A stretch of 64,000 nt of DNA from Pseudomonadota bacterium (GCA_018240685.1 JAFEFG010000004.1:10376-74375), one strand, 5' to 3'; numbered from the stretch's first letter, positions 1 to 41,075 are shown. Numbers and translations: made by a program. The notes: a model not told the origin generated them from the sequence alone.

Positions 1-651
1 GGTGGCCCGGTCGCTCCCGTCGGTCGGCCGGTATGTCGTCCGGTAGCCGCCCAGCAGCAACCCGTCGGGCGTCGTCTTGAATGTCGGGACGAGCGTGGAG
101 ATGCCGCTCGGCGTCCTGACCTCGGTCCGGCGGATGACGAGGTCCTTGCCCAGCGCGATCGACATCGCGGTGTCGCCGGCCGCCGACGTGACGAGCCACT
201 GTCCCGGCTGCTCGGCCAGCTTGAACGCCGTCGACGGCGACGGCAGGGGCGAGTCGACGACGAACGTGCCGAAGGCGGCGAAGACGCCCTGCAGCACCTT
301 GTCGAGGCCGGCCGATACGTTCTGCAGCCCCTCGATCTCCCGGGCGTTCTCGGTGCCGAAGGCGCCGTGGGCGACCGTGAGATCGTGCCCTCCCTTCAAC
401 GACAGGGTGAAGCGGACCCGGTTCAGGGCCGCGACCCCGCGATCCGTGCCGGTCGGGTTCTGCTTCCGCTCTTCGGCGAAGATCGTGCCCCAGTCGGGCC
501 GGACCGAGCATTCGAGGCCGGTGAAGCCGCGCGACGCCAGGGAGTAATAGGCCTGCCGCGCCCGGGCGATCGTCTCGTCGCCGGTGTCGGCCCACGCCGG
601 TCCGCCGCACAGGGCAAGCGCGAGGACGGGAAGTACGCTCTTGTGGAACAT
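1..651 (-). CDS. Secreted hypothetical protein, 3' end runs off the window
   Basis: Manual translation from ATG at 651: MFHKSVLPVLALALCGGPAWADTGDETIARARQAYYSL..., open to position 1; signal peptide-like N-terminus (AWA cleavage site). Absent from the ORF track because it has no stop in the window. Confidence 0.7.
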   Translation of the reverse strand, partial: MFHKSVLPVLALALCGGPAWADTGDETIARARQAYYSLASRGFTGLECSVRPDWGTIFAEERKQNPTGTDRGVAALNRVRFTLSLKGGHDLTVAHGAFGTENAREIEGLQNVSAGLDKVLQGVFAAFGTFVVDSPLPSPSTAFKLAEQPGQWLVTSAAGDTAMSIALGKDLVIRRTEVRTPSGISTLVPTFKTTPDGLLLGGYRTTYRPTDGSDRAT

Positions 652-713
652 CGCAGGATCTCGAATGGCCGCCGACGGGCGCCGAGCTTATCCGGCCCCT
701 CGCCGCGGTGCCA

Positions 714-1832
714 TCACGCCCTCATCCGCTGGCCGCCGATGCGATGGGAGGCCAGCACCTCGGGCTTGAAGGCGACGCCGTGGCCCGGCCGCTCGGGCGG
801 GCGCATGGTGCCGTCCCGGGCCGGCAGGATCGGCTCGATCCAGAGATCGTCGTTCCAGTCCATGTATTCGAGGTAGCTGGCGTTGGGGATCGAGGCCAGC
901 AGGTGGACCATCTGCTCGTGGAACAGATGCGGCGCGAGGCGGATGCCCCACGGCTCGCCGGCGGCGGCGATCTTGCGCAGCTCGGTGTAGCCGCCGCGCA
1001 TCGGGTCGGGCTGCAGGATCGGCACGCACGGCGTCTCGAAGAAGGGTCTGAGGTCCTGGCGCGTGAAGTGGCTCTCGCCGCCCACGACGCGGGTCTTGAG
1101 CGCGGCGGCGATGCGGCGGTAGCCGGCGAAGTCCTCGGCGATCACCGGCTCCTCCAGCCAGTAGGGATCGTAGTCGTCGAGGCGGTGGCCGGCCTGGATC
1201 GCGGTGTCGGCGTCCCAGCCCATGTTGACGTCGATCATGATCTCGATGCCGTCGCCCATCGCCTCGCGCATCGCCTTCACGTTCAGCACGTCCTCGCGCC
1301 ACGGCCGGATGTGCGCCACCTGCATCTTGATGGCCTTGAGCCCCAGGGCGGTGAATTCCTGCGCCCGCGCGATCATGCCGTCGCGGCCGAGGCCGCGGAA
1401 GCAGCCCGAGCCGTAGGCCGGCACGCTTTCGCGCGAGGCACCCCAGAGCCGGAACAGCGGCAGGCCGGCATGCTTGCCGACCAGGTCCCACAGCGCCATG
1501 TCGACCGCGCTCTGGGCGAAGACGGTGACGCCCATGCGGCCGAGCCAGAAGTTGGCCTTGTAGAGCTGGGTCCAGATCGCCTCGATCTCGGTGGCGTCGC
1601 GGCCGATGACGTGCGGGGCGACCAGCTCCTTCATCGCCGCGTCGATCGTGTGCAGGCCGCCGCGCAGGGGCTGGAGGTAGCTCATGCCGGTGTGGCCGTC
1701 CGCGGTCTCGACCTCCAGCACGTAGATCTCGCGGAACGGGTCGGAGAGGATGCCCGCGGCCGGCGGCTTGCCGCGCCACGGCACCTGCAGCAGGGTCGAC
1801 CGCAGCTCGACGATGGTGGTGGGCTTGGTCAT
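714..1832 (-). CDS. Mandelate racemase/muconate lactonizing enzyme (enolase superfamily) protein
   Basis: Metal ligands DVN, EEP and GE; LQPD and APH motifs. Start taken at MTKPTT (GGAGAG upstream) rather than the ORF-track start at 2069. Confidence 0.9.
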   Translation of the reverse strand: MTKPTTIVELRSTLLQVPWRGKPPAAGILSDPFREIYVLEVETADGHTGMSYLQPLRGGLHTIDAAMKELVAPHVIGRDATEIEAIWTQLYKANFWLGRMGVTVFAQSAVDMALWDLVGKHAGLPLFRLWGASRESVPAYGSGCFRGLGRDGMIARAQEFTALGLKAIKMQVAHIRPWREDVLNVKAMREAMGDGIEIMIDVNMGWDADTAIQAGHRLDDYDPYWLEEPVIAEDFAGYRRIAAALKTRVVGGESHFTRQDLRPFFETPCVPILQPDPMRGGYTELRKIAAAGEPWGIRLAPHLFHEQMVHLLASIPNASYLEYMDWNDDLWIEPILPARDGTMRPPERPGHGVAFKPEVLASHRIGGQRMRA

Positions 1833-1936
1833 TGCGCTCTCCCCGGTCGCTCCTTCGGACGCCCGCACTATGGGGCGCCGCCGCCGCGCCTCCAATGGCC
1901 GTTCGGCCGCTGTGCAGAAGGGAATGGACGTCGCTG

Positions 1937-1952
1937 TGTGAAGTAGGTCACA
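1937..1952. promoter_or_regulatory. CRP-family binding site TGTGA-N6-TCACA
   Basis: tgtga-agtagg-tcaca is a perfect match to the CRP consensus. Centre at 1944.5. Confidence 0.8.
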
Positions 1953-1973
1953 TACAGCGTTTGCCGACTGTCC

Positions 1974-1979
1974 TATCGT
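1974..1979 (+). promoter_or_regulatory. -10 hexamer of a putative class II Crp-activated promoter
   Basis: TATCGT. With a TSS near 1986 this puts the CRP box centre at -41.5. Confidence 0.55.
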
Positions 1980-2037
1980 GACGGTGTCGCGCTGCGTTGC
2001 GTTCCTGCCTTTCGACGTGTCGAACAGGGAGACAACC

Positions 2038-3213
2038 ATGGACGCCATGCTCAGGGACGACGTGCTCACCCGCGAGATGCTGCAGGGCTTCGCGGGCCGC
2101 GTCGCGCACTACGATCGCGAAAACCGGTTCTTCAGGGAGGATTTCGACGAACTGGCGAGGTCCGGCTATCTCACCATGGCCGTGCCCGAGGAGCTGGGCG
2201 GCCGCGGCCTGACGCTGGCCGAAGTCTGTCGCCAGCAGCGCACGCTCGCCTACCACGCGCCGGCGACGGCGCTCGGCATCAACATGCACGTCTACTGGAC
2301 CGGCGTCGCCGCCGATCTCTGGCGTGCCGGCGACCGGTCGCTGGAGTGGATGCTGCGCGAGGCGATGGCGGGCGAGATCTTCGCCGCCGGCCATTCCGAG
2401 CGCGGCAACGATCTGCCGCTGCTGCTGTCGACCACCAAGGCCCAGCGCGTCGACGGCGGCTTCCGCTTCAGCGGACACAAGATGTTCGGCAGCCTGGCGC
2501 CGGTCTGGACGCGCTACGGCCTGCACGGGCTGTGGGCCGATGCCGAGGGCGGGCCGAAGATCGTGCACGCCTTCCTGTCGCGCGACAGCGCCGGCTACAA
2601 GATCGTCGACACCTGGGACACGATGGGCATGCGCGCCACGCGCAGCGACGACGTCGTGCTCGACGAGACCTTCATCCCCGACCGCTACGTCGCCCGCATC
2701 CTGCCGGCCGGCGGCGCCGATCCCTTCGTGCTCGCCATCTTCGCCTGGGCGGTGCTGGGCTTCGGCAACATCTATTGCGGCATCGCCCGCCGCGCGCTGG
2801 AGCTCGCCACCGAGGGCGTGAAGAAGAAGACGTCGGCCGCGGTCAGCCGGACGATGGCCTATCACCCCGAGGTCCAGCATGCCGTGGCGCAGATGGCGCT
2901 GGCCTTCGATCCGGTGGCGCCGCATCTCGACCAGGTGGCGCGCGACTGGAGCGACGGCGTCGATTACGGCCACGGCTGGCCGGCGAAGATCGTCTCCGCC
3001 AAGCATCACGCCGTCGAGGCGTGCTGGCGGATCGTCGACACCGCGATGGAGGTGTCCGGCGGCGCCGGCATGTTCCGCGGCAACGAGCTGGAGCGGCTGT
3101 TCCGCGACGCCCGCTGCGGCCGCTTCCATCCGGCCAACGCGATGCTGGTGCACGAGATCGTGGCCAAGACCCAGCTCGGCATCGACCTCGGCGAGCAGCC
3201 GCGCTGGGGCTGA
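2038..3213 (+). CDS. Acyl-CoA dehydrogenase-fold protein, likely flavin-dependent monooxygenase type (DszC/YdbM-like)
   Basis: ACAD motifs (VPEELGG, WDTMGMRATRS, LERLFRDAR); FHPAN where dehydrogenases have IYEGT; SD AGGGAG before ATG 2038. Confidence 0.85.
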   Translation: MDAMLRDDVLTREMLQGFAGRVAHYDRENRFFREDFDELARSGYLTMAVPEELGGRGLTLAEVCRQQRTLAYHAPATALGINMHVYWTGVAADLWRAGDRSLEWMLREAMAGEIFAAGHSERGNDLPLLLSTTKAQRVDGGFRFSGHKMFGSLAPVWTRYGLHGLWADAEGGPKIVHAFLSRDSAGYKIVDTWDTMGMRATRSDDVVLDETFIPDRYVARILPAGGADPFVLAIFAWAVLGFGNIYCGIARRALELATEGVKKKTSAAVSRTMAYHPEVQHAVAQMALAFDPVAPHLDQVARDWSDGVDYGHGWPAKIVSAKHHAVEACWRIVDTAMEVSGGAGMFRGNELERLFRDARCGRFHPANAMLVHEIVAKTQLGIDLGEQPRWG

Positions 3214-3247
3214 ACGCCCGGAAGGAGTCGCACCGGAGGGACCGCAC

Positions 3248-6200
3248 ATGGCAGCCGCCGACCAGGATGCCGGACGGGAAGCGCGGGAGGTCACGCGCGA
3301 GGACCTGCGGCGCTGGCTGTCCGCCAACGGCCTCGGCGGCCATGCCGCGAGCTTCGCCGCCAACGGGATCGACTGGGACGTCCTGGTCGATCTGACGGAG
3401 GCGGACCTCCGCGAGCTCGGCCTGTCGCTGGGCGACCGCAAGCGGCTCCTCAAGGCGATCCAGGCGCTCAAGGGCCAGCCGCTCAAAGACCAGGCGCCTG
3501 AGGGCACTCCTCCGGCGGCGCCCGCCGCCGGCAGCGGGATGCCACCGCCCCCGGCTCCGACTTCGGCTCCGACTCAGGCGCCGATCCCGGCGCTGGGGCC
3601 GAACCTGGCCGCCGAGCGGCGCTCCATCACCGTGATGTTCGTCGATCTCGTCGGCTCGACGCCGATGTCCGAGCAGCTCGATCCCGAGGACATGCGCGAG
3701 GTCCTGCGCGCCTTCCACGAGGGCTGCGCCGAGGCCATCGGCGCCGAGGACGGCCATATCGCCCGCTACATGGGCGACGGCATCCTCGTCTATTTCGGCT
3801 ATCCGCACGCGCACGAGGACGACGCCGTCCGCGCGGTGCGCGCCGGCCTCGGCATCATCGCCAGCCTGCGCGGCACCAACCGGACCCTGGCGGTGCAGTA
3901 CGGGGTGCGCCTGCAGGCGCGCATCGGCATCCATACCGGTCTCGTCGTGGTCGGCGATGTCGGCGCCGGCGCGGCGCGCGACCGCGAGGCGATCGTCGGC
4001 GAGACGCCCAACATCGCCGCGCGCCTGCAGGGAGAGGCCCAGCCCGATACCGTCGTCATCAGCGCCGCGACCCGGCGGCTGGTCGAGGGGCACTTCGTGT
4101 TCGAGGACGTCGGCTCGCGGGCGCTGAAGGGCGTGTCGTCCCTCATCCGCATCTTCCGCGTCGCCAGGCAGGCCGAATCGCCGGACCGCTTCGACGCCCG
4201 GGTCGATCGCGGCCTGACGCCGCTGGTCGGCCGCGGCGCCGAGCTCGAGATGCTGCGGCAGCGCTGGGAGCAGGCGCGCGAGGGGGAGATGCGCTGCGTG
4301 CTGCTGGTGGGCGAGGCGGGGATCGGCAAGTCGCGCCTGGTGCGCGCCTGCCGCGAGGCGCTGGCGGAGGAGCCGCACCAGGCCGTGAGCTGGCACTGCT
4401 CCTCCTATCACCGCAGCAGCGCCTTCTATCCGGTCATCGTCTGGCTGCTGCGCAGCCTCGGCATCAACCCGCAGCAGGAGGCGGACCTGTCGAAGCTGGA
4501 GGCGGCGGTCGACAGCCTCGGCATCGCCGACGCCGACGTGGTACCGACCGTGGCGTCGCTGCTGGGTCTGGCGGCCGAGCCCGCCGAGGAGACGTCGGGA
4601 CTGGCCTTCCGGCGGCGGGTGCTCGATGCGCTGTCCGCCACCATCGACGCCATGGCGCGCCGGCAGCCGCTGCTGATGGTGGTCGAGGACGCCCACTGGA
4701 TCGATCCCTCGACCCTCGACCTGCTGCGCGAGCTGCAGGAGCGGCTGACGGCGTCGCGGCTGCTGCTGCTGGTCACGGCGCGTCCGGAGTTCAAGCCGGG
4801 CTGGAGCTATCCGCAGCTCGTGCAGGTGAACCTCGACCGCCTGTCGCGCCGCGAACGCCACGCGATGATCGAGCAGCTCACGGCGGGCAAGGCGCTGCCC
4901 GACTTCGTCCTCGACCAGATCGTCCTGCGCACCGACGGCGTGCCGTTGTTCGTGGAGGAGCTGACTAAGACCGTGCTGGAGGAGAACGTCTGGCGCGACG
5001 CCGGCACCCACTACGAGCTCGAAGGGCCGTTCCAGGGCATCGCCATCCCGGACTCGCTGCAGGGCTCGCTGCTGGCGCGGCTGGACCGCCTCGATCCGTC
5101 GGCGAAGGAGATCGCCCAGATCGGCGCCGCCATCGGCCGCGAGTTCAACCGCGACCTGCTGCACATCGTGGCCCGGCAGGGCGACGAGAGCCTGGAGGCG
5201 GGCCTCGACCAGCTCGTGGCGGCGGAGATCGTGCGGCCGGTGTGGCTGCCGGCGGCCGGCGGCCGGTCCTTCGCCTTCCGCCACGCCCTGATCCAGGACG
5301 CCGCCTACCAGTCGCTGCTGCTGGCGCGCCGCCGCCAGTACCATGCCGCCATCGCGCGGGCCCTGCTGTCGGACTTCCCCGAGATCGCCGCGGCGCAGCC
5401 CGAGGTCGTGGCCCAGCATCTCACCACCGCCGACCAGGTCGATCCCGCGATCGACGCCTGGCTGCGCGCCGCCGAGAGCGCGATGGATCGCGGCGCCTAT
5501 GCCGAGGCCCAGGCGCACGTGTCGCGTGGCCTGGAGCTGATCAAGCGGCTGCCGGGCGAGGAGAAGGGGAGGGCGCGGCGCGCCGTGCCGTTCCTGCTGA
5601 CGCGCGGCCGGCTCGAGATCAAGGAGACGCGGACCCAGGCCCAGGTCACGTTCCACCAGGCCGCGACCATGGCGCGCGCGTGCGGGCTCGTGCGCGAATT
5701 CGCCTTCGCCGCCATCGGCATGTGCCAGGTCGAGCAGTTCGGCTACTCGCCAAGCCCGATGGCGAAGGAACTGATCCGCGAGGCGCTGGACAATCCGGCG
5801 CTCGACGACGCCAACCTGCGGTGCCGGCTGCAGTGCTGGATGGGGCGGGCGCTCTTCCTCAGCGGCGGCGACGTCCAGGGCTGCGCCACCTGCGTCGCCG
5901 AGGCGCGGGCGACCGCGGAACGGCTGGGCGACCGGCGCTGCCTGCACGACATCATGGCCACCGAGATGATGTACTACCCGACGCCCGTCGCGTCGGAGTT
6001 CGACCGCACGGCGCGCTTCGTCCGCGAGTTCTCCGAATCGGCGCGCCTGTTCGCCGATCCCTACGAGGCCATGTACTCGGCCGGCATCACCAGCGCGCGC
6101 TTCCTGGAGATCGGCGACATCGAGGGCTTCCACGAGACGCTGCGGCGCATCGCCGAACTCGCCCGCATGACCCAGGCGCCGGGCGACCGCTGGCTGCATC

Positions 6201-6946
6201 TGACGTTCCAGGCCCTGAGCGCCATGCTCGCCGGCGACTACGCCCTTGCCGAGAGGCGGGCGACGGAGGCCTACGCGGCCGTCACCGATGCGAGCCTGGG
6301 CCCGTATTCCGGCATCTACGGCATGCAGATGTTCGCGATCCGGCGCGACCAGGGCCGGCTCGCCGAGATCGCGCCGCTGGTGAAGCGGTTCGTGAACGAG
6401 AACCCGGACGAGGCGGTGTGGAAGCCGGGCCTGATGCTGATCGCCAGCGATGTCGGGTTCCATGTCCAGGCGCGGCAGCATTTCGAGGACTTCGCCGCGA
6501 CCGGCTTCGCCGTTCCCGAGGACGCCAAGCGCCAGATCACGCTGACCTACTTCGCCGAGGTCTGCGCCGCGCTCGGCGATGCGGCGCGCGCCGAGCGCCT
6601 GCACGAGCTTCTGCTGCCCTACCGGGACGTCACGGTCCTGGCGCCGCCCAACACGCTCTGCAACGGCGCCATGGCCCATTATCTCGGCCTGCTGTCCGCG
6701 ACGATGGCGGACTGGGAGACGGCGGAATCGCATTTCCAGGCCGCGCTCGCGCTCAACGAGCGGCTCGAGGCCTGGCCGCGCCTGGCCTGGACGCAGTTCG
6801 AGTACGCGCGGATGCTATTGGCACGGGGACGGAACGGCGATAGCGTACTCGCAGGTACTCTGCGCAAATCGGCCATGACAGCGGCCGAACGGATGGGCAT
6901 GGGGGCCCTTCTGCAGCGCAGCGCGACACTCGAGGGGCGGGCGTGA
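3248..6946 (+). CDS. SAM domain-class III nucleotide cyclase-STAND (AAA) ATPase-TPR-like protein
   Basis: N-terminal SAM (WLSANGL...LRELGLSLGDRKRLL); cyclase motifs VDLVGST, GDG and NIAARLQ; Walker A GEAGIGKS; Walker B VVEDAHW; helical repeat C-terminus; SD GGAGGG. Confidence 0.9.
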   Translation: MAAADQDAGREAREVTREDLRRWLSANGLGGHAASFAANGIDWDVLVDLTEADLRELGLSLGDRKRLLKAIQALKGQPLKDQAPEGTPPAAPAAGSGMPPPPAPTSAPTQAPIPALGPNLAAERRSITVMFVDLVGSTPMSEQLDPEDMREVLRAFHEGCAEAIGAEDGHIARYMGDGILVYFGYPHAHEDDAVRAVRAGLGIIASLRGTNRTLAVQYGVRLQARIGIHTGLVVVGDVGAGAARDREAIVGETPNIAARLQGEAQPDTVVISAATRRLVEGHFVFEDVGSRALKGVSSLIRIFRVARQAESPDRFDARVDRGLTPLVGRGAELEMLRQRWEQAREGEMRCVLLVGEAGIGKSRLVRACREALAEEPHQAVSWHCSSYHRSSAFYPVIVWLLRSLGINPQQEADLSKLEAAVDSLGIADADVVPTVASLLGLAAEPAEETSGLAFRRRVLDALSATIDAMARRQPLLMVVEDAHWIDPSTLDLLRELQERLTASRLLLLVTARPEFKPGWSYPQLVQVNLDRLSRRERHAMIEQLTAGKALPDFVLDQIVLRTDGVPLFVEELTKTVLEENVWRDAGTHYELEGPFQGIAIPDSLQGSLLARLDRLDPSAKEIAQIGAAIGREFNRDLLHIVARQGDESLEAGLDQLVAAEIVRPVWLPAAGGRSFAFRHALIQDAAYQSLLLARRRQYHAAIARALLSDFPEIAAAQPEVVAQHLTTADQVDPAIDAWLRAAESAMDRGAYAEAQAHVSRGLELIKRLPGEEKGRARRAVPFLLTRGRLEIKETRTQAQVTFHQAATMARACGLVREFAFAAIGMCQVEQFGYSPSPMAKELIREALDNPALDDANLRCRLQCWMGRALFLSGGDVQGCATCVAEARATAERLGDRRCLHDIMATEMMYYPTPVASEFDRTARFVREFSESARLFADPYEAMYSAGITSARFLEIGDIEGFHETLRRIAELARMTQAPGDRWLHLTFQALSAMLAGDYALAERRATEAYAAVTDASLGPYSGIYGMQMFAIRRDQGRLAEIAPLVKRFVNENPDEAVWKPGLMLIASDVGFHVQARQHFEDFAATGFAVPEDAKRQITLTYFAEVCAALGDAARAERLHELLLPYRDVTVLAPPNTLCNGAMAHYLGLLSATMADWETAESHFQAALALNERLEAWPRLAWTQFEYARMLLARGRNGDSVLAGTLRKSAMTAAERMGMGALLQRSATLEGRA
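3553..3588 (+). repeat. Three imperfect 12-bp tandem repeats in the Pro-rich linker of the cyclase
   Basis: ggctccgacttc / ggctccgactca / ggcgccgatccc, encoding APTS-APTQ-APIP. Confidence 0.6.
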
Positions 6947-6964
6947 ACCGCCCGGGAGGGACTC

Positions 6965-7225
6965 ATGCCGCGTTACATGATCGAGAGAAGATTCGCGGAG
7001 CAGGTGGAGGTGTCGAAGACCGACGCCGACAACATCCGGCGGATCAACGACGAGGAAGGCGTCAAGTGGCTGTTCTCCTTCCTCAGCGCCGACAAGCTGA
7101 AGACCTATTGTCTCTATGAGGCGCCGAACGCCGAGGCCATCCGTGCGGCCGCGCGGCGTGCCAACCTCCCGGCCGACATCGTCGTCGAGGTGGGCGGCGA
7201 GCTGCGGCCGGAAATGTTCGCCTGA
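6965..7225 (+). CDS. DUF4242 (SCO4226-like) protein
   Basis: MPRYMIER start, KTYCLYEAPNAEAIRAAARRANLPAD core; SD GGAGGG. Confidence 0.85.
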   Translation: MPRYMIERRFAEQVEVSKTDADNIRRINDEEGVKWLFSFLSADKLKTYCLYEAPNAEAIRAAARRANLPADIVVEVGGELRPEMFA

Positions 7226-7253
7226 GGGCTGCGCCTCGTCCCAGGCACGCGGC

Positions 7254-7940
7254 ATGACCCCCGAGCAGATGTTCCGGCAGCATCCGCTGTTCGGATCGCT
7301 CGATGCTGGCGACCGGCAGGATCTGCTCGAGCATGTGCGGCTGCGGTCGCTGGCGAGCGGCCAGGTCGTCTTCCGCGAGGGCGACGAGGCCGACGGCCTC
7401 TACGGCGTGCTGAGCGGCCGCATCGTCGTGACCGTCGATTCGCCCAACGGCAAGGAGCTGATCCTCAACACCTTCGGGCCGGGGTCGTTCTTCGGGGAGA
7501 TCGCCTTCCTCGACGGTCGCGGGCGGACGGCGACGGCCGTGGCCCGCGAGGCGTCGCGCCTGGTCTTCCTCGGCCGCGCGGCCTTCCTGCCGTTCCTGAG
7601 GGAGCGGCCGGCTGCTGCCATCCGCATGATCGCCTTCCTGTGCGAGCGGCTGCGGCGGACCACGCAGCTCGTGCAGGACTCGGCCTTTCTCGACGTGCCG
7701 ACGCGCCTGGCCAAGCAGATGGCGGTGATGGCCCAGGACTACGGCGAGCGCGGCGCCTCGGAGACGACGCTCACCATCGCCGTGTCGCAGGCCGAGCTCG
7801 CGCACATGCTGGGCGTTTCCCGCGAGGTCGTGAGCCGCCAGCTCGCGCTCTGGCGCCATGCGGGTGCGATCGACATCGGGCGCGGGCGCATCGTCGTGCA
7901 CGACGCCTCGTTTTTCGACCGCATCGTCGCGGGCGGCTGA
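7254..7940 (+). CDS. Crp/Fnr family regulator, CRP-like
   Basis: cNMP pocket FGEIAFLDGRGRTATA; HTH SQAELAHMLGVSREVVSR. Start taken at MTPEQ. Confidence 0.9.
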   Translation: MTPEQMFRQHPLFGSLDAGDRQDLLEHVRLRSLASGQVVFREGDEADGLYGVLSGRIVVTVDSPNGKELILNTFGPGSFFGEIAFLDGRGRTATAVAREASRLVFLGRAAFLPFLRERPAAAIRMIAFLCERLRRTTQLVQDSAFLDVPTRLAKQMAVMAQDYGERGASETTLTIAVSQAELAHMLGVSREVVSRQLALWRHAGAIDIGRGRIVVHDASFFDRIVAGG

Positions 7941-8006
7941 GGTAACATGGCCGCGGACCGCGACCGGGATCGGATGCCGGTCGGGGCGGGGAGAGTCGGG
8001 AGAGCG

Positions 8007-8411
8007 ATGAGGCGGATCTTCTTGTCGGCCGCGGCCGGCGTTGTCGTGTCGGTGTCGGGGGATGCCGTCTTCGCGCAGGACATGCCCTCGGGTTCCTACA
8101 GCTCGTGGTCGGAGGCGCAGAAGCAGCAGGCCGCGACCTTCCTCGGCGCGCATTGCCAGCAGGCGGAGCAATGCGGCGGCTACATCGCCGCCGCCCGCAC
8201 CGGCCTCGCGCGCGCCTCCTACGAGGCCGCGGCCTGCATCGCGGCCTGCTTCGCGAGCAACCTGCCGGCCGACTATCCCGAGCTCGACGAGATCAGGAAG
8301 GTGGCGCACACCAACGCCGAGCAGGCGAAGAAGCTCGGCTCCTCCTACGAACCGCGCTTCGCGCCGGACGTCCCGGCCCCGCCGCCGCCCGCCGCGGCCC
8401 CGTCGAAATAG
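8007..8411 (+). CDS. Small secreted hypothetical protein with 4 Cys
   Basis: Signal peptide MRRIFLSAAAGVVVSVSGDAVFA; Cys spacing CX5C...CX3C; Pro-rich tail. Alternative start at 7947. Confidence 0.65.
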   Translation: MRRIFLSAAAGVVVSVSGDAVFAQDMPSGSYSSWSEAQKQQAATFLGAHCQQAEQCGGYIAAARTGLARASYEAAACIAACFASNLPADYPELDEIRKVAHTNAEQAKKLGSSYEPRFAPDVPAPPPPAAAPSK

Positions 8412-8450
8412 CGCCGGCTCGCCGCCCTATCTTTATCGACGGCGGTCACT

Positions 8451-10082
8451 ATGATGCGCGCCGCCATGACGACCGGAACCCGCCTCTATCTCTTCGACAC
8501 CACCCTTCGCGACGGCGCCCAGACCCAGGGCGTTGACTTCACCGTGGCGGACAAGGTGGCCATTGCGCGCGAACTCGACCGTCTCGGCATCGACTACATC
8601 GAAGGCGGCTGGCCGGGCGCCAATCCGACCGACGACCGCTTCTTCGCCGATCCGCCCGAATTCCAGAATGCGAAGTTCGTCGCCTTCGGCATGACCCGCC
8701 GCGCCGGCCGCTCGGCCGCCAACGATCCGGGGCTGAACGCCATCCTGCAGACCAAGGCGCGCAACGTGTGCATGGTCGGCAAGACCTGGGACTTCCATGT
8801 CGACGTGGCGCTGGAACTCGACCGCGCCGAGTATGTCGAGATGATCGCCGACTCCGTCGCCCATGCGAAGGGCCGCATGGACGAGGTGATGTTCGACGCC
8901 GAGCATTTCTTCGACGGCTACAAGGCCAATCCCGACTATGCGCTCGCCTGCCTGCACGCCGCCGAGAAGGCGGGCGCGCGCTGGCTGGTGCTGTGCGATA
9001 CCAACGGCGGGACGCTGCCGCACGAGGTCGAGCGCATCGTCGGCGAGGTGTGCGCCAGGATCCCCGGCGAGAAGATCGGCATCCACACCCACAACGACAC
9101 CGAGAACGCCGTCGCCAACACGCTGGCCGCCGTGCGGGCGGGCGCGCGCCAGGTGCAGGGCACCATCAACGGGCTGGGCGAGCGCTGCGGCAACGCCAAC
9201 ATGATCTCGCTGATCGCCAACCTGGTGATCAAGATGGGCTACGAGACCGGGCTGAAGGAGGGCGCGCTGCAGCGGCTGACGCACCTGTCGCGCCTGCTCG
9301 ACGACCGCCTCAACGTGCCCACCAACCGCAGCGCGGCCTATGTCGGCACCCGCGCCTTCGCCCACAAGGGCGGGCTGCATGTCTCGGCGGTCGAGAAGGA
9401 CCCCAGGACCTACGAGCATGTCGATCCCGAGACGGTCGGCAACCAGCGCATCATCGTCGTCAGCGACCAGGCCGGCCGCTCCAACATCATGGCGCGCTTC
9501 CGCCAGATCGGGCTCGAGGTCGACCCCAAGGATCCCGCCGTCGCCCGGCTGCTGGAGATCGTCAAGGAGCGCGAGGCCGAGGGTTACGCCTATGACGGCG
9601 CCGACGCGTCGTTCGAGCTGCTGGCGCGGCACGAGCTGCACACCGTGCCCGACTACTTCGCCCTGCAGAGCTTCCGCGTGCTGGTCGAGCGGCGCGTCAA
9701 CGCCCGCGGCCAGCTCATCGCCATGTCGGAGGCGACGGTGAAGCTCGACGTCGCCGGCCATCGCGCGATGGAGGTGGGCGAGGGCAACGGCCCCGTGAAC
9801 GCGCTCGATGCTGCGCTGCGGAAGGCGCTGGTGCCGGTCTATCCCGAACTCGCCGACATGCGGCTGGTCGACTTCAAGGTACGCATCCTCGATTCGGCCG
9901 GCGGCACGGCCGCGACCACGCGCGTGATGATCGAAAGCGGGGACGGCAAGGGGCGGCGCTGGTCGACCATCGGCGTGTCGCCCAACATCGTCGACGCTTC
10001 CTACAATGCGCTCTACGACGCCATCACCTACAAGTTGTTCCGTGACGGAGCGACGCCGGCGGCGGCGAAGGCCGCTTCCTGA
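8451..10082 (+). CDS. cimA: Citramalate synthase
   Basis: DTTLRDGAQ, HTHND, GLGERCGN, AHKGGLH; C-terminal regulatory domain GNGPVNALD. Confidence 0.92.
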   Translation: MMRAAMTTGTRLYLFDTTLRDGAQTQGVDFTVADKVAIARELDRLGIDYIEGGWPGANPTDDRFFADPPEFQNAKFVAFGMTRRAGRSAANDPGLNAILQTKARNVCMVGKTWDFHVDVALELDRAEYVEMIADSVAHAKGRMDEVMFDAEHFFDGYKANPDYALACLHAAEKAGARWLVLCDTNGGTLPHEVERIVGEVCARIPGEKIGIHTHNDTENAVANTLAAVRAGARQVQGTINGLGERCGNANMISLIANLVIKMGYETGLKEGALQRLTHLSRLLDDRLNVPTNRSAAYVGTRAFAHKGGLHVSAVEKDPRTYEHVDPETVGNQRIIVVSDQAGRSNIMARFRQIGLEVDPKDPAVARLLEIVKEREAEGYAYDGADASFELLARHELHTVPDYFALQSFRVLVERRVNARGQLIAMSEATVKLDVAGHRAMEVGEGNGPVNALDAALRKALVPVYPELADMRLVDFKVRILDSAGGTAATTRVMIESGDGKGRRWSTIGVSPNIVDASYNALYDAITYKLFRDGATPAAAKAAS

Positions 10083-10224
10083 CGCGGGTGCAGCGCGAAG
10101 TCGGACGTTGGTACGCTGCGGTGCAGCGAAGAGTCGGTACGGTCGACAGTACCGGTGGTTGAAACTGGCAGCCATGACGCGCCTTTAGTTGACGCTGTTG
10201 GGCGCGGGTAAGACGATAAACACA

Positions 10225-11346
10225 ATGGACGGAGAGCACATACCGGCGCAGGCCTCACCGCCGCCGCCGATCACAGTCAGCCCGCCGCACGTGCCGCGCG
10301 GGACGCGGTCGGGGCGGCGTGTCCTCGCGCGCGGCCTGATGTGGGCCCTGCCTTTCCTCGTCGCCGGCGGCGCGATCTTCGTCTGGCTCACTTCGGGCCG
10401 CTATGTCAGCACCGACAACGCCTATGTGAAGGGCGACCGCGTGATGCTCGCCACCGAGCTGAGCGGCATCATCACCGAAGTGCCGGCGCAGGAGAACGAG
10501 CACGTCTCGCGCGGCCAGCTCCTGTTCCGGCTCGACGACCAGCCCTACCGGCTCGCGCTCGCCAAGATCGACGCCGCGATCGACACCGCCCGCGCCGAGA
10601 TCCGCGCCCTGCGCGCGCAGTGGCGCAGCAAGCGCGAGGAGATCAAGGCCGCGCGCAGCCAGGAGGTCTACGCGCAGGCCGACTACGACCGCCAGAAGGA
10701 CCTCGCCGAGCGCAAGTTCGCCTCCGTGGCCAAGTTCGACGAGGCGCGCATGTCGCTCGACGTGGCGCGCCAGCGCATCTCGACGGCCGAGGAGGACCTG
10801 ACGCGCATCGAGGCGGCGCTGGCCGGCAACCCGAAGATCCCGGTCGACGAGCATCCCAAGGTCAAGGAGCTGCTGGCCCAGCGCCAGGAGGCGCTGCTGA
10901 ACCTGCGCCGCACCATCATCAACGCGCCGCTCGAGGGCATGGTGGCCAAGCGGCCCGTGCCCGGCACCTACGCCACCGCCGGCATGCCGGTGATGGTGGT
11001 GGTGGCCGACAAGGACCTCTGGGTCGAGGCCAATTTCAAGGAGACCGAGCTCACGCGCGTGCGGCCCGGGCAGCCGGCCACGATCCGCATCGACACCTAT
11101 CCCGACATGGAATGCACGGGCCACGTCGAATCGATCGCCCAGGCCACCGGCGCGGAGTTCGCCGTGCTGCCGCCGCAGAACGCCAGCGGCAACTGGGTGA
11201 AGGTCGTGCAGCGCATCCCCGTGCGCATCGCCGTGAAGTGCGCCGACACCGACCCGCCGCTGCGCGTGGGCATGAGCACGCTGGTCGAGATCGACACCGG
11301 CCATCACCGCTCGATCGGCGACCTGCTGGCCGGCATCGGCCTGTGA
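10225..11346 (+). CDS. emrA: HlyD/EmrA family periplasmic adaptor
   Basis: VSTDNAYV, single TM, NFKETEL, LPPQNASGNWVKVVQRIPVRI. Confidence 0.9.
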   Translation: MDGEHIPAQASPPPPITVSPPHVPRGTRSGRRVLARGLMWALPFLVAGGAIFVWLTSGRYVSTDNAYVKGDRVMLATELSGIITEVPAQENEHVSRGQLLFRLDDQPYRLALAKIDAAIDTARAEIRALRAQWRSKREEIKAARSQEVYAQADYDRQKDLAERKFASVAKFDEARMSLDVARQRISTAEEDLTRIEAALAGNPKIPVDEHPKVKELLAQRQEALLNLRRTIINAPLEGMVAKRPVPGTYATAGMPVMVVVADKDLWVEANFKETELTRVRPGQPATIRIDTYPDMECTGHVESIAQATGAEFAVLPPQNASGNWVKVVQRIPVRIAVKCADTDPPLRVGMSTLVEIDTGHHRSIGDLLAGIGL

Positions 11347-12854
11347 CCATCGACCCCGCCGTCCTGCGCCGACGCCGCTGGATCACCGTGGTGGTGATGA
11401 TGGCCACCATCATGCACGCGCTCGACGGCACCATCGCCAACGTGGCGCTGCCGTCGATCCAGGGCTCGCTGTCGGCGACGCAGGAGCAGGTCTCCTGGGT
11501 CATCACCTCCTACATCGTCGCCTCGGCGATCATGACGCCGCTGGCGGGCTACTGCGCCGTGCGCTTCGGCCTGCGCCGCATCCTGGTCGGCGCGGTGATC
11601 GGCTTCACCATCGTCTCCATGCTGTGCGGCGTGGCGCAGTCGCTGGAGGAGCTGGTGCTGTTCCGCGCCCTGCAGGGCGGGTTCGGCGCCTCGCTGGTGC
11701 CGCTCAGCCAGGCGCTGATGATGGACACCTATCCGCGCGAGGAGCAGGGCAAGGCGATGGCCATGTGGGGCGTCGGCACCATGGTCGGCCCCATCACCGG
11801 CCCGACGCTGGGCGGCTGGCTCACGGACCAGTACACGTGGCGCTGGGTCTTCTACATCAACCTGCCGGTCGGCATCCTCTGCGCCACCGGCCTGATGCTG
11901 CTGATCAAGAACCAGGCCAGCGACAAGCCGCGCTCCTTCGACCTGCTGGGCTTCAGCCTGCTGGCGATCGCGATCGGCACCTTCCAGCTCATGCTCGACC
12001 GCGGCCAGCAGCTCGACTGGTTCGAATCGCGCGAGATCATCATCGAGACGCTGGTGGCGGGCGTCGCGGCGACGATGTTCGTGATCCACATGTTGACGGA
12101 CGACCATCCGTTCCTGTCGCGCGACCTGTTCAAGAACCGCAACCTGATGATCGGTCTCGTCTTCACGGCGCTCGCCGGCCTGATCCTGATCGTCACCTCG
12201 ACGCTGATGCCGCCCTTCCTGCAGCAGCTCAAGGGCTATCCGGTCTTCACCACCGGCATCGTCATGGCGCCGCGCGGGGCGGGCATGATGGCGGCGATGA
12301 TGCTGGTGTCGCGCCTGATCGGCCGCATGGACGCGCGCTGGCTGATCGCCGCCGGCCTCGGCCTGTGCGGCCTGTCGCTCTACGAGATGTCGCTGTTCAG
12401 CCTCGATGTCAGCGAGAGCCGCATCGTCTGGAACGGCGTCTATCTCGGCTTCGGGCTCGGGCTCGTCTTCCCGCCGCTCACCACGCTTGCCTTCGCCACC
12501 ATCCCGCAGCGCCTGCGCACCGAGGGCGCGGCGGTCAACGCGCTGCTGCGCAATCTCGGCGCCTCTGTCGGCATCGCCGTGCTGGTGTCGCTGCTCGACC
12601 GCAACACCCAGACCAACCATGCCGAGCTCAGCGAGAAGCTCTCGCCGTTCAATCCTGCCTGGCCGTTCGGCGCCGCCATACCGGGCGCCAACTCGCTGCC
12701 GCTCGCGGTATGGGACGGCGAGATCACGCGCCAGTCGGCGATGATCAGCTACCTCAACGATTTCCGCGTCATGATGATCTGCACCGTGGTGGTGATCCCG
12801 CTGCTGGTCCTCATGCAGCGCCAGGTCATGCTGCCGCGGCCGACGCGGCGCTGA
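11343..12854 (+). CDS. emrB: DHA2/EmrB family MFS efflux permease
   Basis: LDGTIANVALPSIQG, WVITSYIVA, GPTLGGWLTD, WRWVFYINLPVG; GTGA overlap with the emrA stop. Confidence 0.9.
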   Translation: MTIDPAVLRRRRWITVVVMMATIMHALDGTIANVALPSIQGSLSATQEQVSWVITSYIVASAIMTPLAGYCAVRFGLRRILVGAVIGFTIVSMLCGVAQSLEELVLFRALQGGFGASLVPLSQALMMDTYPREEQGKAMAMWGVGTMVGPITGPTLGGWLTDQYTWRWVFYINLPVGILCATGLMLLIKNQASDKPRSFDLLGFSLLAIAIGTFQLMLDRGQQLDWFESREIIIETLVAGVAATMFVIHMLTDDHPFLSRDLFKNRNLMIGLVFTALAGLILIVTSTLMPPFLQQLKGYPVFTTGIVMAPRGAGMMAAMMLVSRLIGRMDARWLIAAGLGLCGLSLYEMSLFSLDVSESRIVWNGVYLGFGLGLVFPPLTTLAFATIPQRLRTEGAAVNALLRNLGASVGIAVLVSLLDRNTQTNHAELSEKLSPFNPAWPFGAAIPGANSLPLAVWDGEITRQSAMISYLNDFRVMMICTVVVIPLLVLMQRQVMLPRPTRR

Positions 12855-12899
12855 TGCGCCCCTGACAACGCACGGCCGAAACGCGCTATAGAGCCCCAC

Positions 12900-13664
12900 A
12901 TGGGACGAGCGTCGAAAGGGCAGGCCACGGCGGCGGCCGGGCCGGTCATCATCATGGTGCGGCCTCAGTTGGGCGAGAATATCGGCATGGCCGCGCGCGC
13001 CATGCTGAATTGCGGGCTGTCGGCGCTGCGGCTGGTGGCGCCGCGCGACGGCTGGCCCAACGAGCGGGCGCAGCGCGCCGCTTCCGGCGCCGACATCGTG
13101 CTGGAGCAGGCCGAGGTGTTCGATACCGTCGCGGAGGCGGTAGCGGATCTGGAGCACGTGGTCGCCACCACGGCGCGCAACCGCGAACTCTCGCAGCGCA
13201 TCGTGACCGCCCGCGCGGCGGCGGCCGAGATGCACGGCTGGATCGGGCAGGGGCTCCGGGTCGGCGTGCTGTTCGGGCCCGAGCGCACGGGCCTCGAGAA
13301 CGACGACATGGTGCATGCCGACACCGCGCTCTCGATCCCGCTCAATCCGCAGTTCTCCTCGCTGAACGTCGCCCAGGCCGTCCTGCTGGTGTCCTACGAA
13401 TGGGCCACCGCCGCCGACGCCACGCCGCCCGAGCGCATGGCCGAGCATGCGACGCGGCCGGCGACCAAGGAGGAGCTGCAGAACCTGTTCGACCATCTCG
13501 AACGCGCGCTCGACCAGTCGGGGTTCCTGCGCCACAAGGACATGCGGCCCTCGATGGTGCTCAATCTGCGCGCGCTCCTGCAGCGCGCCGGGATGACCGA
13601 GCAGGAGGCGCGCACCTTCCACGGCGTCATCAAGTTCCTGTCCAAGCACAAGCACGAGGAATAG
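12900..13664 (+). CDS. trmJ: TrmJ/LasT family SPOUT RNA methyltransferase
   Basis: PQLGENIGMAARAM, FGPERTGL, SSLNVAQAV. CTGACA-N17-GCTATAGA promoter ends just before the ATG, so possibly leaderless. Confidence 0.85.
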   Translation: MGRASKGQATAAAGPVIIMVRPQLGENIGMAARAMLNCGLSALRLVAPRDGWPNERAQRAASGADIVLEQAEVFDTVAEAVADLEHVVATTARNRELSQRIVTARAAAAEMHGWIGQGLRVGVLFGPERTGLENDDMVHADTALSIPLNPQFSSLNVAQAVLLVSYEWATAADATPPERMAEHATRPATKEELQNLFDHLERALDQSGFLRHKDMRPSMVLNLRALLQRAGMTEQEARTFHGVIKFLSKHKHEE

Positions 13665-39791: not shown

Positions 39792-41075
39792 ATGACGAAT
39801 GCGATATCGGGCGCCTACGCGCAGGCCCTTCGGCGGGAGATCCTGCGCAGCGAGCAACAGCGGATGCGGGCGCTCGCCATCATCCTGTCGATCCTGCTGG
39901 CGGCGACCCTGATCGGTGCGGCCTTCCTGCCGGACGTGCGCAACCAGCTGTTTCCCCAGGGCATCTCGGTCTGGGTCCCGCTTGCGGGCATCGGGCCGTT
40001 CATCCTGTTCGAACTGGCGGCGCTCCTTGTCCTGCGCTGGCGCATTGCAGCCGGCAAGGATTTCCCCCAGCCGGCGCGGTTTGCCAACGCCTTCATCGAG
40101 ACAAGCCTGCCGGGCGTGGTGATCTTCGTCCTCTCCCGGCACATGGATCCCCCGCTCGTCTTCGGCTTCTGGCCGCCCCTGCTCTATTTCGTGTTCATCG
40201 TGCTGTCGACATTGCGACTCGATTTCTGGCTGTCGCTCTGGACCGGCACCATCGCCGCCGTCGAGCAGTTCGCACTCGCCTGGTGGCTGCTGCCGGTCGG
40301 TCCCGGAGCAACGGGCGCCGATGAGACGATCTACTATCACCTCAGTCGCAGCGTCATGCTCCTGATGGCCGGCGTCGTTGCGGGCGTGGTCGCCCGGAGC
40401 CTGCGACGGCAGTTCGAGAATTCGGTCGTCGCGGCAGCCGCCCGAGACCGCGTGACCAACCTGTTCGGCCAGCATGTTTCGCCGGCGGTGGTCGACCGCC
40501 TGCTGGCCACGCAGACCGATCCGCCGAGCGAGATCCGGCCCGTCTGTGTGCTCTTCCTCGACATTCGCGGTTTTACGGCAATGACGCGCAAGCGCCCGGC
40601 CCGCGAGACGGTCGCGCTGCTGAACGACTTCTTCGCCGCCATGGTCGTCATCGTCGACCGCCACGGCGGCATCGTGAACAAGTTCCTGGGCGACGGCTTC
40701 CTCGCCGTCTTCGGCGCGCCGCTTCCCGATCCGGAGGCGGCGACGCACGCCGTCGCTGCGGGGCGCGAAATGCTGGCCGCCGTCGATGAATGGAACCGGC
40801 AACGGCCCGGTCAGGCGCTACGCGTGGGCATTGGCATCCATGCCGGAGAGGCGGTGACGGGCACCGTCGGGTCGGCCGAGCGCAAGGAATACACCGTCAT
40901 CGGCGACACCGTGAACCTTGCCGCGCGGCTGGAGCAACTCACCAAGGAGACCGGCGCGCGGCTGCTGGTGTCGGACGCCCTGGATGCGCAGGCCCGGGAG
41001 GCGGGCGGCGAGGATCTGGGACCGATGGCGATCCGCGGTTACGGCGAACCGGTGCGGGTGTGGAGGCTGGCATGA
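39792..41075 (+). CDS. Membrane-bound class III adenylate cyclase
   Basis: Multi-TM N-terminus; FLDIRGFT, KFLGDG, YTVIGDTVNLAARLE (canonical Lys/Thr ATP specifiers). Confidence 0.9.
   Translation: MTNAISGAYAQALRREILRSEQQRMRALAIILSILLAATLIGAAFLPDVRNQLFPQGISVWVPLAGIGPFILFELAALLVLRWRIAAGKDFPQPARFANAFIETSLPGVVIFVLSRHMDPPLVFGFWPPLLYFVFIVLSTLRLDFWLSLWTGTIAAVEQFALAWWLLPVGPGATGADETIYYHLSRSVMLLMAGVVAGVVARSLRRQFENSVVAAAARDRVTNLFGQHVSPAVVDRLLATQTDPPSEIRPVCVLFLDIRGFTAMTRKRPARETVALLNDFFAAMVVIVDRHGGIVNKFLGDGFLAVFGAPLPDPEAATHAVAAGREMLAAVDEWNRQRPGQALRVGIGIHAGEAVTGTVGSAERKEYTVIGDTVNLAARLEQLTKETGARLLVSDALDAQAREAGGEDLGPMAIRGYGEPVRVWRLA

Follow-up and report, generated by a model that had tools for sequence, protein, structure and literature searches.

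A STAND sensor cyclase, a Crp-type regulator and a conserved CRP box form a putative second-messenger relay at a flavoenzyme locus of Reyranella

The stretch of DNA analysed here, a 64 kb window covering positions 10376-74375 of contig C195, belongs to a 5.04 Mb assembly (G+C 67%, completeness 97%) of the Reyranella lineage, an alphaproteobacterium from soil. Near the beginning of the window, four co-directional genes on the plus strand are preceded by a perfect CRP box. They encode, in order, a flavoenzyme of the acyl-CoA dehydrogenase (ACAD) fold (2038-3213; 391 residues), a STAND sensor cyclase (3248-6946; 1232 residues), a DUF4242/SCO4226-like protein (6965-7225; 86 residues) and a CRP-type transcription factor, termed Crp (7254-7940; 228 residues), and are separated by gaps of 34, 18 and 28 nt. 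The box, TGTGAAGTAGGTCACA, occupies positions 1937-1952, with no strand assigned, and is proposed to serve as the binding site of the Crp that the operon encodes; it lies 86 nt upstream of the operon, which encodes the sole Crp of the genome with an R-E-x-x-x-R recognition helix. A -10-like hexamer, TATCGT (1974-1979, plus strand), is located 21 nt past the box, with a predicted transcription start near position 1986. This anatomy had been described in an initial sequence-only reading of the window, and the perfect box, the spacing to the -10, the order of the four genes, the STAND cyclase and the small gaps were all borne out by the sequence and by Pfam.

With TATCGT as the -10 hexamer, the centre of the box (1944.5) falls at -41.5 relative to the transcription start. 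A consensus scan identified no -35 element and no sigma-70 promoter, as expected if the promoter is of the activator-dependent class II type, and the phasing between box and -10 would suit CRP activation of class II, the site being at -41.5 over the missing -35. Within the 64 kb window a single match is unremarkable, as 53 of 100 shuffles of it gave at least one match with at most one mismatch. The 5.04 Mb genome contains only two perfect boxes, against 1.26 expected from composition, together with 11 one-mismatch sites. The other perfect TGTGA-N6-TCACA (C26:201-216) lies inside a long open reading frame (ORF), in a stretch of lower G+C near a contig end, and is probably not regulatory; the N-terminal part of this reading frame has no obvious function. 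The significance of the box at 1937-1952 thus resides in its position and its conservation, and not in the match within one window.

Conservation was assessed in orthologous loci drawn from the same family and from a scan of species-representative genomes. In 10 loci, that of the window included, the box recurs with zero to two mismatches at a distance of 72-108 nt from the ACAD start, on its upstream side. At a density of ~2.6e-6 sites per nt with up to one mismatch, ~6e-4 such sites are expected per 250-nt upstream region. Besides the window box, the individual sequences are TGTGACCCACCTCACA (L003/L055), TGTGCGGTTGTTCACA (L004/L027), TGTGTGGTGGTTCACA (L006/L041), TGTGCGGTCGGTCACA (L008+L104), TGTGCGCTGGTTCATA (L009/L043), TGTGCGGCAGGTCACA (L011/L038), TGTGTGATTGATCACA (L012), TGTGATCCACTTCACA (L035) and TGTGGCGCGGTTCACA (L044). 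A TAnnGT hexamer, mostly CCTAGGGT, follows 20-21 nt past the box in nine of the 10 loci, while the remaining upstream DNA and the upstream neighbour genes vary among them. Seven loci, another genus included, have retained the order ACAD, cyclase, DUF4242, crp. The comparison of orthologous loci therefore upheld what the sequence-only reading had led one to expect: the box, its spacing and the order of the genes recur, and box and crp gene occur together.

The box is present in all eight Crp-linked ACAD loci for which upstream DNA was available. It also occurs in L044 and in L035, the contig of which breaks off ahead of crp. In contrast, no site with at most one mismatch was identified upstream of ACAD in L022, a Reyranella metagenome-assembled genome (MAG), or in any of the loci in which the sensor has a DNA-binding domain of its own, among them those with a LuxR domain, termed type B below. 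Crp itself is patchy, being found in 22 of 121 genomes of the family (E <= 1e-40). Among the 12 orthologs of at least 57% identity in the family sample, eight reside in an ACAD-cyclase-DUF4242 locus and one beside ACAD alone, while two (L010 and L013) stand beside a distant ACAD, with the box ~211 nt upstream of crp itself; 11 of the 12 thus adjoin an ACAD gene. The co-occurrence of box and Crp, and the patchy presence of Crp beside ACAD, suggest that this Crp is a local accessory regulator with its own operator and not a global one.

The Crp protein comprises a cyclic nucleoside monophosphate (cNMP)-binding domain (PF00027, residues 31-117, 1.9e-25) and a helix-turn-helix (HTH) domain (HTH_Crp_2, PF13545, residues 151-218, 7.8e-14). 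Its score against the NCBIfam CRP equivalog, 97 bits for a cut-off of 266, indicates that it is not an ortholog of E. coli CRP. The best solved relatives are 7pza (1.6e-32), which we take to be Clr of Sinorhizobium meliloti, and 3d0s/3i54, presumably CRP of Mycobacterium tuberculosis; the aligned helix of the latter, if so identified, reads R-E-T-V-N-K. Translation, together with alignments to structures and orthologs, revealed an intact nucleotide pocket (FFGE...GRTA) and a C-helix with RRTTQ. The recognition helix, GVSREVVSRQL, contains R190-E191-V-V-S-R195 (codons at 7821-7838, plus strand). R190 and E191 are invariant in 15 Crp orthologs and paralogs, and the full GV[ST]RE-x-VSRQL motif, R195 included, is found in the 12 closest orthologs, whereas three paralogs of ~50% identity have M, K or R at position 195. 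The other Crp/Fnr-family proteins of the assembly are FixK/Fnr-like (ETVSR) or unrelated. The assignment of a CRP-type factor with an intact cNMP pocket and an R-E-x-x-x-R helix, likewise made in the sequence-only reading, was therefore confirmed by translation and alignments. R-E-x-x-x-R is the pattern by which E. coli CRP reads TGTGA, and the RT of the pocket occurs also in Rv3676 and in CgrA, which prefers cGMP (PMC10187061). The alphaproteobacterial Clr is activated by both cAMP and cGMP (PMC10127613). With Clr taking both nucleotides and CgrA preferring cGMP, the ligand of the window Crp cannot be read from its sequence. Crp is predicted to bind the box in a cNMP-dependent manner.

Few other targets of Crp are apparent in the genome. 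The 11 one-mismatch sites gave no convincing promoter-proximal set that would outline a wider regulon; as regards output, so few near-consensus sites are in keeping with a regulon of very small size. The most promoter-like of the 11, TGTGAATAATCACACA (C221:20299-20314), is located 82 nt upstream of an ORF that, judging from its N-terminus, we take for a SixA-like phosphohistidine phosphatase; another overlaps the start of an ORF taken for tatA. Boxes were also observed beside more distant Crp paralogs. A perfect box, TGTGAACTGCTTCACA (L019:8439-8454, genome G030), lies 77 nt upstream of a second Crp paralog, 50% identical to that of the window. It agrees letter for letter with the published box of the gcyB-gcyC-cgrA operon of Rhodospirillum centenum, and L019 may be a CgrA-type locus in Reyranella. 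A further perfect box, TGTGAAGGGGTTCACA (L020:8401-8416), is positioned between two divergently oriented paralogs of Crp, which share 49% and 51% identity with the window Crp.

The STAND protein displays an N-terminal SAM_1 domain (residues 15-75), a Guanylate_cyc domain (residues 124-296; PF00211, 1.4e-20), an AAA_16 NTPase (residues 325-507; PF13191, 1.6e-27) with Walker A GEAGIGKS and Walker B LLMVVEDAHW, and a tetratricopeptide repeat (TPR) region matching TPR_12; a partial match to TOMM_kin_cyc was also found. No LuxR/GerE HTH was identified by Pfam at its C-terminus, in contrast to the sister type B proteins, where one is present, and its architecture includes no HTH. The class III cyclase catalytic domain is encoded at 3617-4135 (plus strand), and its catalytic residues are intact: metal-binding D133 and D177 and transition-state N255 and R259 align with 2w01 and 3r5g and are conserved in type A orthologs, those that share the architecture of the window. 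The cyclase is probably active as an enzyme, judging from these residues. The pair of residues that specifies the base is Lys/Asp in cyclases using ATP and Glu/Cys or Glu/Gly in those using GTP, the guanylyl cyclase Cya2 having Glu/Gly. No canonical pair is found in the window protein, which has Arg173/Ala248, and the Arg is replaced by Asn in the distant orthologs L042 and L047. The TPR sensor region, ~720 residues encoded at 4778-6943 (plus strand), is common to the LAL-type regulators that adjoin ACAD orthologs.

The ACAD-fold protein, the conserved cargo of the module, matches PF08028, PF00441 and PF02771 (Acyl-CoA_dh_2, _1 and _N) above their cut-offs and PF02770 (Acyl-CoA_dh_M) below, Acyl-CoA_dh_2 being the best model; all NCBIfam matches fall far short of their cut-offs. 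Among solved structures, the closest relatives are 5z8t/5gj7, 3m9v/4kcf, 4zxv (DnmZ) and 3mxl (Nitrososynthase), of which we take 3m9v/4kcf, 4zxv and 3mxl to be sugar N-oxygenases of the ACAD fold. As to the catalytic glutamate base that sets true dehydrogenases apart from oxygenase or oxidase members, a motif ...RCGRFHPAN... sits, in an alignment made by eye only, where MCAD presumably has ...IYEGT.... Orthologs with 63-80% identity occur in Alphaproteobacteria, Acidobacteriota, Chloroflexota, Methylomirabilota and other groups, with more than 566 genome matches, and the protein collection contains over 7800 close relatives that bear generic names only, such as 'acyl-CoA dehydrogenase family protein' or 'AidB-like'. 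The designation of this enzyme as a monooxygenase, proposed in the sequence-only reading, is plausible, though unproven. The DUF4242 protein (PF14026, 4.9e-20) is the constant companion of the STAND gene. A nickel-binding role, suggested by the Pfam name, was considered and rejected: in SCO4226 the Ni-1 ligands are Asp43, Ser46 and His76, and His76 has no counterpart here, the histidine positions of SCO4226 aligning to Leu and Val. As the window protein contains no histidine at all, a role in nickel binding should not be assumed.

Beyond the family, ACAD, STAND and DUF4242 genes recur together. About 60 of the best 80 ACAD loci have both a DUF4242 gene and a STAND gene (AAA_16 plus TPR) within 8 kb, and four arrangements were distinguished. 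In type A, found in Reyranella, Stellaceae and relatives, ACAD is followed by the SAM-cyclase-AAA-TPR gene, DUF4242 and, in part, crp. Type B, from other Alphaproteobacteria, has DUF4242 divergent from an AAA-TPR-LuxR gene, which precedes ACAD; some of these sensors possess an N-terminal cyclase with the canonical Lys/Asp pair, and such cyclase-AAA-TPR-LuxR genes, which have the architecture of Rv0386 of M. tuberculosis, stand upstream of ACAD orthologs in L025, L028 and L034. Type C, known from several phyla, combines a Ser/Thr kinase, a degenerate cyclase and AAA-TPR in one protein, followed by DUF4242 and located beside ACAD. In type D, ~33 acidobacterial loci, an OmpR-type winged HTH-AAA-TPR gene is convergent with DUF4242 and divergent from a methyltransferase gene that precedes ACAD. 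DUF4242 stands beside the STAND and ACAD genes in all four types.

Some of these loci show features of their own. Type C is exemplified in other phyla by L056, L072, L076, L083 and L090, with the kinase-cyclase-AAA-TPR gene followed by DUF4242 beside ACAD; the cyclase domain of L072 lacks both metal-binding Asp residues and the catalytic Asn and is thus a pseudo-cyclase. In the acidobacterial loci (~33 loci within L052-L100; for example L066:3618-9155), the methyltransferase preceding the ACAD ortholog is of the Rv2258c-like winged-HTH kind; in L066 a KatG-like peroxidase gene is located downstream and the STAND gene appears as two adjoining reading frames, reflecting either a frameshift or two genes. 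In a MAG of Chloroflexota (L049:7807-7862), three adjoining CRP-like boxes with one mismatch each lie 130-170 nt upstream of the ACAD ortholog, and a second chloroflexal locus has a gene of the Crp family (L045:3549-4175; 36% identity) that points away from ACAD; control of the enzyme by a Crp-type factor may have been recruited independently.

Three observations link types A and B. The 722-residue TPR region of the window aligns with type B sensors over ~700 residues at 28-32% identity (175-251 bits; in L029 over 525 residues only), whereas its best paralog in the same genome aligns over 234 residues only (90 bits). In a tree of the NTPase and TPR regions, types A and B are each monophyletic and are sisters (99% SH-aLRT) against type C plus the paralog. 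This tree was midpoint-rooted and has long outgroup branches, and the cyclase domains of types A and B2 are ~30% identical, so that the direction of the output swap is not given by it. Between regulator and ACAD, type B loci (L023-L025, L028-L030, L032-L034, L039 and L046, with ACAD at ~8001 in each) contain a palindrome, CTCAyCATTCCTGrTGAG (variant CTCAACATATCTGTTGAG), followed by a conserved GTTCTGACGATTTATC element, and this palindrome stands where type A has the CRP box. The two together are a candidate LuxR operator and promoter. The same clade of sensors and the same target gene therefore appear, from sequence comparison, to be wired in two ways, through a fused HTH with its operator or through a cyclase, a Crp encoded on its own and a CRP box. 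The homology of the sensors, their sister clades and the swapped operator constitute the strongest indirect evidence for a relay from cyclase to Crp to box. In these comparisons the conserved core appears as sensor, flavoenzyme and DUF4242, with the cyclic-nucleotide loop as the wiring of one lineage.

Other features of the locus concern its boundaries. Terminator-like hairpins are weak only, one of them lying within the 3' end of crp (7892-7905), and neither a consensus promoter nor a strong terminator was detected between the operon genes by the consensus scan. An Rfam scan of positions 1-12000 of the window gave no match, indicating that this region has no riboswitch or leader RNA. A small ORF (8007-8411) with a signal peptide-like N-terminus (MRRIFLSAAAGVVVSVSGDAVFA) begins 66 nt past crp, or at 7947 if translation starts from an ATG further upstream; neither Pfam nor NCBIfam gave a match for it, and relatives do not have it downstream of crp. 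Upstream of the box, an enolase-superfamily gene is encoded in the divergent direction (717-1832, minus strand). The suggestion in the sequence-only reading that this gene shares the site was not supported: none of the orthologous loci has retained this neighbour, and our own inspection revealed no TAnnnT -10 on its strand. The upstream neighbours differ from ortholog to ortholog, and the MR_MLE genes of L006 and L009 are paralogs of 27% identity on the same strand as ACAD.

The design of such a circuit is not new, and the view that no description of it existed as a unit does not hold: a perfect box preceding genes for cyclase subunits and a crp gene, with a feed-forward loop, has been published for R. 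centenum CgrA (PMC4681086). There, the footprinted perfect box (TGTGAAGCAGTTCACA) precedes RC1_3785-gcyB-gcyC-cgrA, cGMP-bound CgrA activates this operon in a feed-forward loop and also activates the gene divergent from it, and CgrA has hundreds of binding sites in R. centenum (PMC4681086; PMC10187061). Both systems are alphaproteobacterial and share the perfect TGTGA-N6-TCACA and an operon of cyclase components that ends in a CRP homologue with RT in place of RS; a near-perfect box upstream of an operon encoding a cyclase function and its own CRP is thus found at the window locus too. They differ in that gcyB and gcyC reportedly encode non-catalytic cyclase subunits, annotated as hypothetical, whereas the window operon has a STAND cyclase. 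A STAND/TPR sensor, an ACAD-like enzyme and DUF4242 are not described for the R. centenum operon in the available parts of these papers, the two operons having been compared by description only. CgrA runs a large developmental regulon (encystment), whereas near-consensus sites in the window genome are almost confined to the operon itself.

Components of the window system resemble those of three further systems. Mycobacteria are known to have cyclases of the STAND type that carry LuxR domains (PMC2447327, PMC3466318). The window protein shares with the M. tuberculosis Rv0386, Rv1358 and Rv2488c type a class III cyclase fused to an AAA_16 STAND NTPase and TPR; unlike the Rv0386 type, it begins with a SAM domain, ends without a LuxR HTH and works with a CRP box and a Crp encoded by a gene of its own, as far as the arrangement of the locus suggests. 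The substrate-defining residues of Rv0386 are also non-canonical (Gln/Asn). With MalT and other LAL regulators it has in common a homologous NTPase and TPR sensor and, presumably, ligand-induced oligomerisation that turns on a catabolic gene, type B LAL regulators being located directly upstream of the same ACAD gene; the window output is, in contrast, a diffusible nucleotide with a separate receptor, acting at a CRP box and not at a CTCA-N10-TGAG palindrome. S. meliloti Clr, with its cyclases CyaD1, CyaD2 and CyaK, is related through 7pza, the closest solved relative of the window Crp if we identify that structure correctly, but the Clr helix in the structure alignment is R-P-K-V-N-R, against R-E-V-V-S-R in the window. 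Clr reads TGTT-N8-AACA, and its cyclases are known neither as STAND proteins nor as members of an autoregulated operon with clr. No published description was found of a STAND cyclase with a dedicated Crp, of the association of ACAD, DUF4242 and STAND genes, of the output swap, or of the ACAD-like enzyme, including for structures 5GJ7 and 5Z8T. The circuit design is therefore already known from R. centenum; what is new is its context with a STAND/TPR sensor, a flavoenzyme and DUF4242.

Taken together, these data make it moderately probable that a dedicated second-messenger relay controls the conserved module of sensor, flavoenzyme and DUF4242. In such a relay, the TPR region of the STAND protein would detect a ligand, probably one with a connection to what the ACAD-like enzyme consumes or makes. 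The protein would then oligomerise in a nucleotide-dependent manner, perhaps with the aid of its SAM domain, and so pair the class III cyclase domains into active dimers; the cyclic nucleotide made by these would bind the Crp encoded in the same operon. Positioned on the box ~41.5 bp upstream of the transcription start, Crp would act as a class II activator of ACAD, cyclase, DUF4242 and crp. The loop would be self-reinforcing, as cyclase and Crp are among the products of the operon. We infer in this scheme the binding of Crp, the direction of regulation, the ligand, the identity of the nucleotide and the co-transcription of the four genes, and equally that the STAND cyclase of the window, and not one of the other 20 cyclases, feeds the window Crp. 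The chain from sensor to cyclase to Crp to promoter, proposed in the sequence-only reading, gained indirect support from the LuxR-fused sister sensors, which are encoded upstream of the same ACAD with a different palindromic operator; the self-activating loop appears plausible only. Overall, the observation made in that reading is confirmed and its interpretation partly supported.

Several findings weigh against a dedicated relay. Both the -10 hexamer and the transcription start are predicted features, and the consensus scan for promoters and terminators leaves the limits of the operon unsettled. The crp gene is separated from DUF4242 by 4.6 kb in L008 and by 1.9 kb in L011, so that feedback onto crp itself is not universal. 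The Arg/Ala pair makes the product of the cyclase unpredictable. The genome encodes 21 class III cyclase domains (PF00211), one more of them within the same window (~40530-40952; C195:50905-51327), so that the cyclase encoded in cis need not supply the ligand of Crp. Finally, L022 retains ACAD (8001-9173), cyclase (9231-12863) and DUF4242 (12883-13140), and its STAND protein is the closest relative of that of the window, with 76% identity in the TPR region, yet this locus has no CRP box at ACAD, the upstream region of which looks rearranged, and its genome has no Crp ortholog. This reflects either a recent loss of the relay or incompleteness of the MAG; with that possibility in mind, L022 suggests that the cyclase can exist without this Crp. 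On the input side, the self-contained character that the sequence-only reading ascribed to the system is thus not established, given the 21 cyclase domains, the Arg/Ala pair and the retention of ACAD, cyclase and DUF4242 in L022 without Crp or box.

Some of these observations also serve another explanation, namely that Crp activates the operon through the box with a ligand taken from the general cNMP pool, reporting a starvation or catabolite-type signal with no private loop, while the cis-encoded cyclase signals elsewhere or adds to the pool. Besides the 21 PF00211 domains and the cyclase without Crp in L022, the nine cNMP-binding proteins of the genome and the hundreds of sites reported for CgrA in R. 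centenum (PMC4681086) are in line with this explanation. Near-perfect sites are, however, few in the window genome (two perfect and 11 with one mismatch), Crp is limited to 22 of 121 family genomes and nearly always adjoins ACAD or the cyclase, and the LuxR-fused sister sensors argue that the sensor itself controls the promoter; we therefore regard a general pool as rather unlikely, though to be reckoned with.

A repressing role of the box, whether as negative autoregulation or through cNMP-independent binding by which Crp limits expression of the operon, is improbable. Many regulators do repress their own promoters, the box overlaps the -35 position, and binding of Rv3676 depends less strictly on cAMP (PMC10187061). 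However, the promoter offers no -35 consensus to unaided RNA polymerase, and the strict spacing of 20-21 nt matches the exact phasing of class II activation, whereas simple occlusion would tolerate variable spacing; the R. centenum homologue is an activator (PMC4681086). That the palindrome is a chance match, or the site of an unrelated factor with a merely coincidental link to Crp, is highly improbable. Composition alone predicts ~1.3 perfect sites per genome and the match is not significant within the window, but the box is kept in 10 loci at a fixed distance to the -10, is absent exactly where Crp is absent, and faces a Crp helix of the type known to read TGTGA.

The dedicated relay could be carried one step further. 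In the Reyranella lineage a one-component STAND factor may have been turned into a private channel, in which the product of the Arg/Ala cyclase is not cAMP but another nucleotide, such as cGMP or a cNMP with a pyrimidine base, that is read by its own Crp only, the sensed ligand being the substrate of the ACAD-like enzyme. This proposal is speculative and we hold it to be unlikely; if true, the circuit would be insulated from the other 20 cyclases of the cell.

The locus associates a STAND-linked cyclase, a class that also includes the Rv0386 group of M. tuberculosis, with a promoter and a receptor that are both defined and with a conserved enzyme as cargo, and both its input and its output are thus testable in a simple reconstituted system. 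The two wirings of types A and B would represent a natural output swap, showing how a relay through a second messenger can take the place of a one-component regulator, or the reverse. The ACAD-like enzyme and DUF4242 would then form a regulated pair in soil bacteria, one that is abundant and has been little studied.

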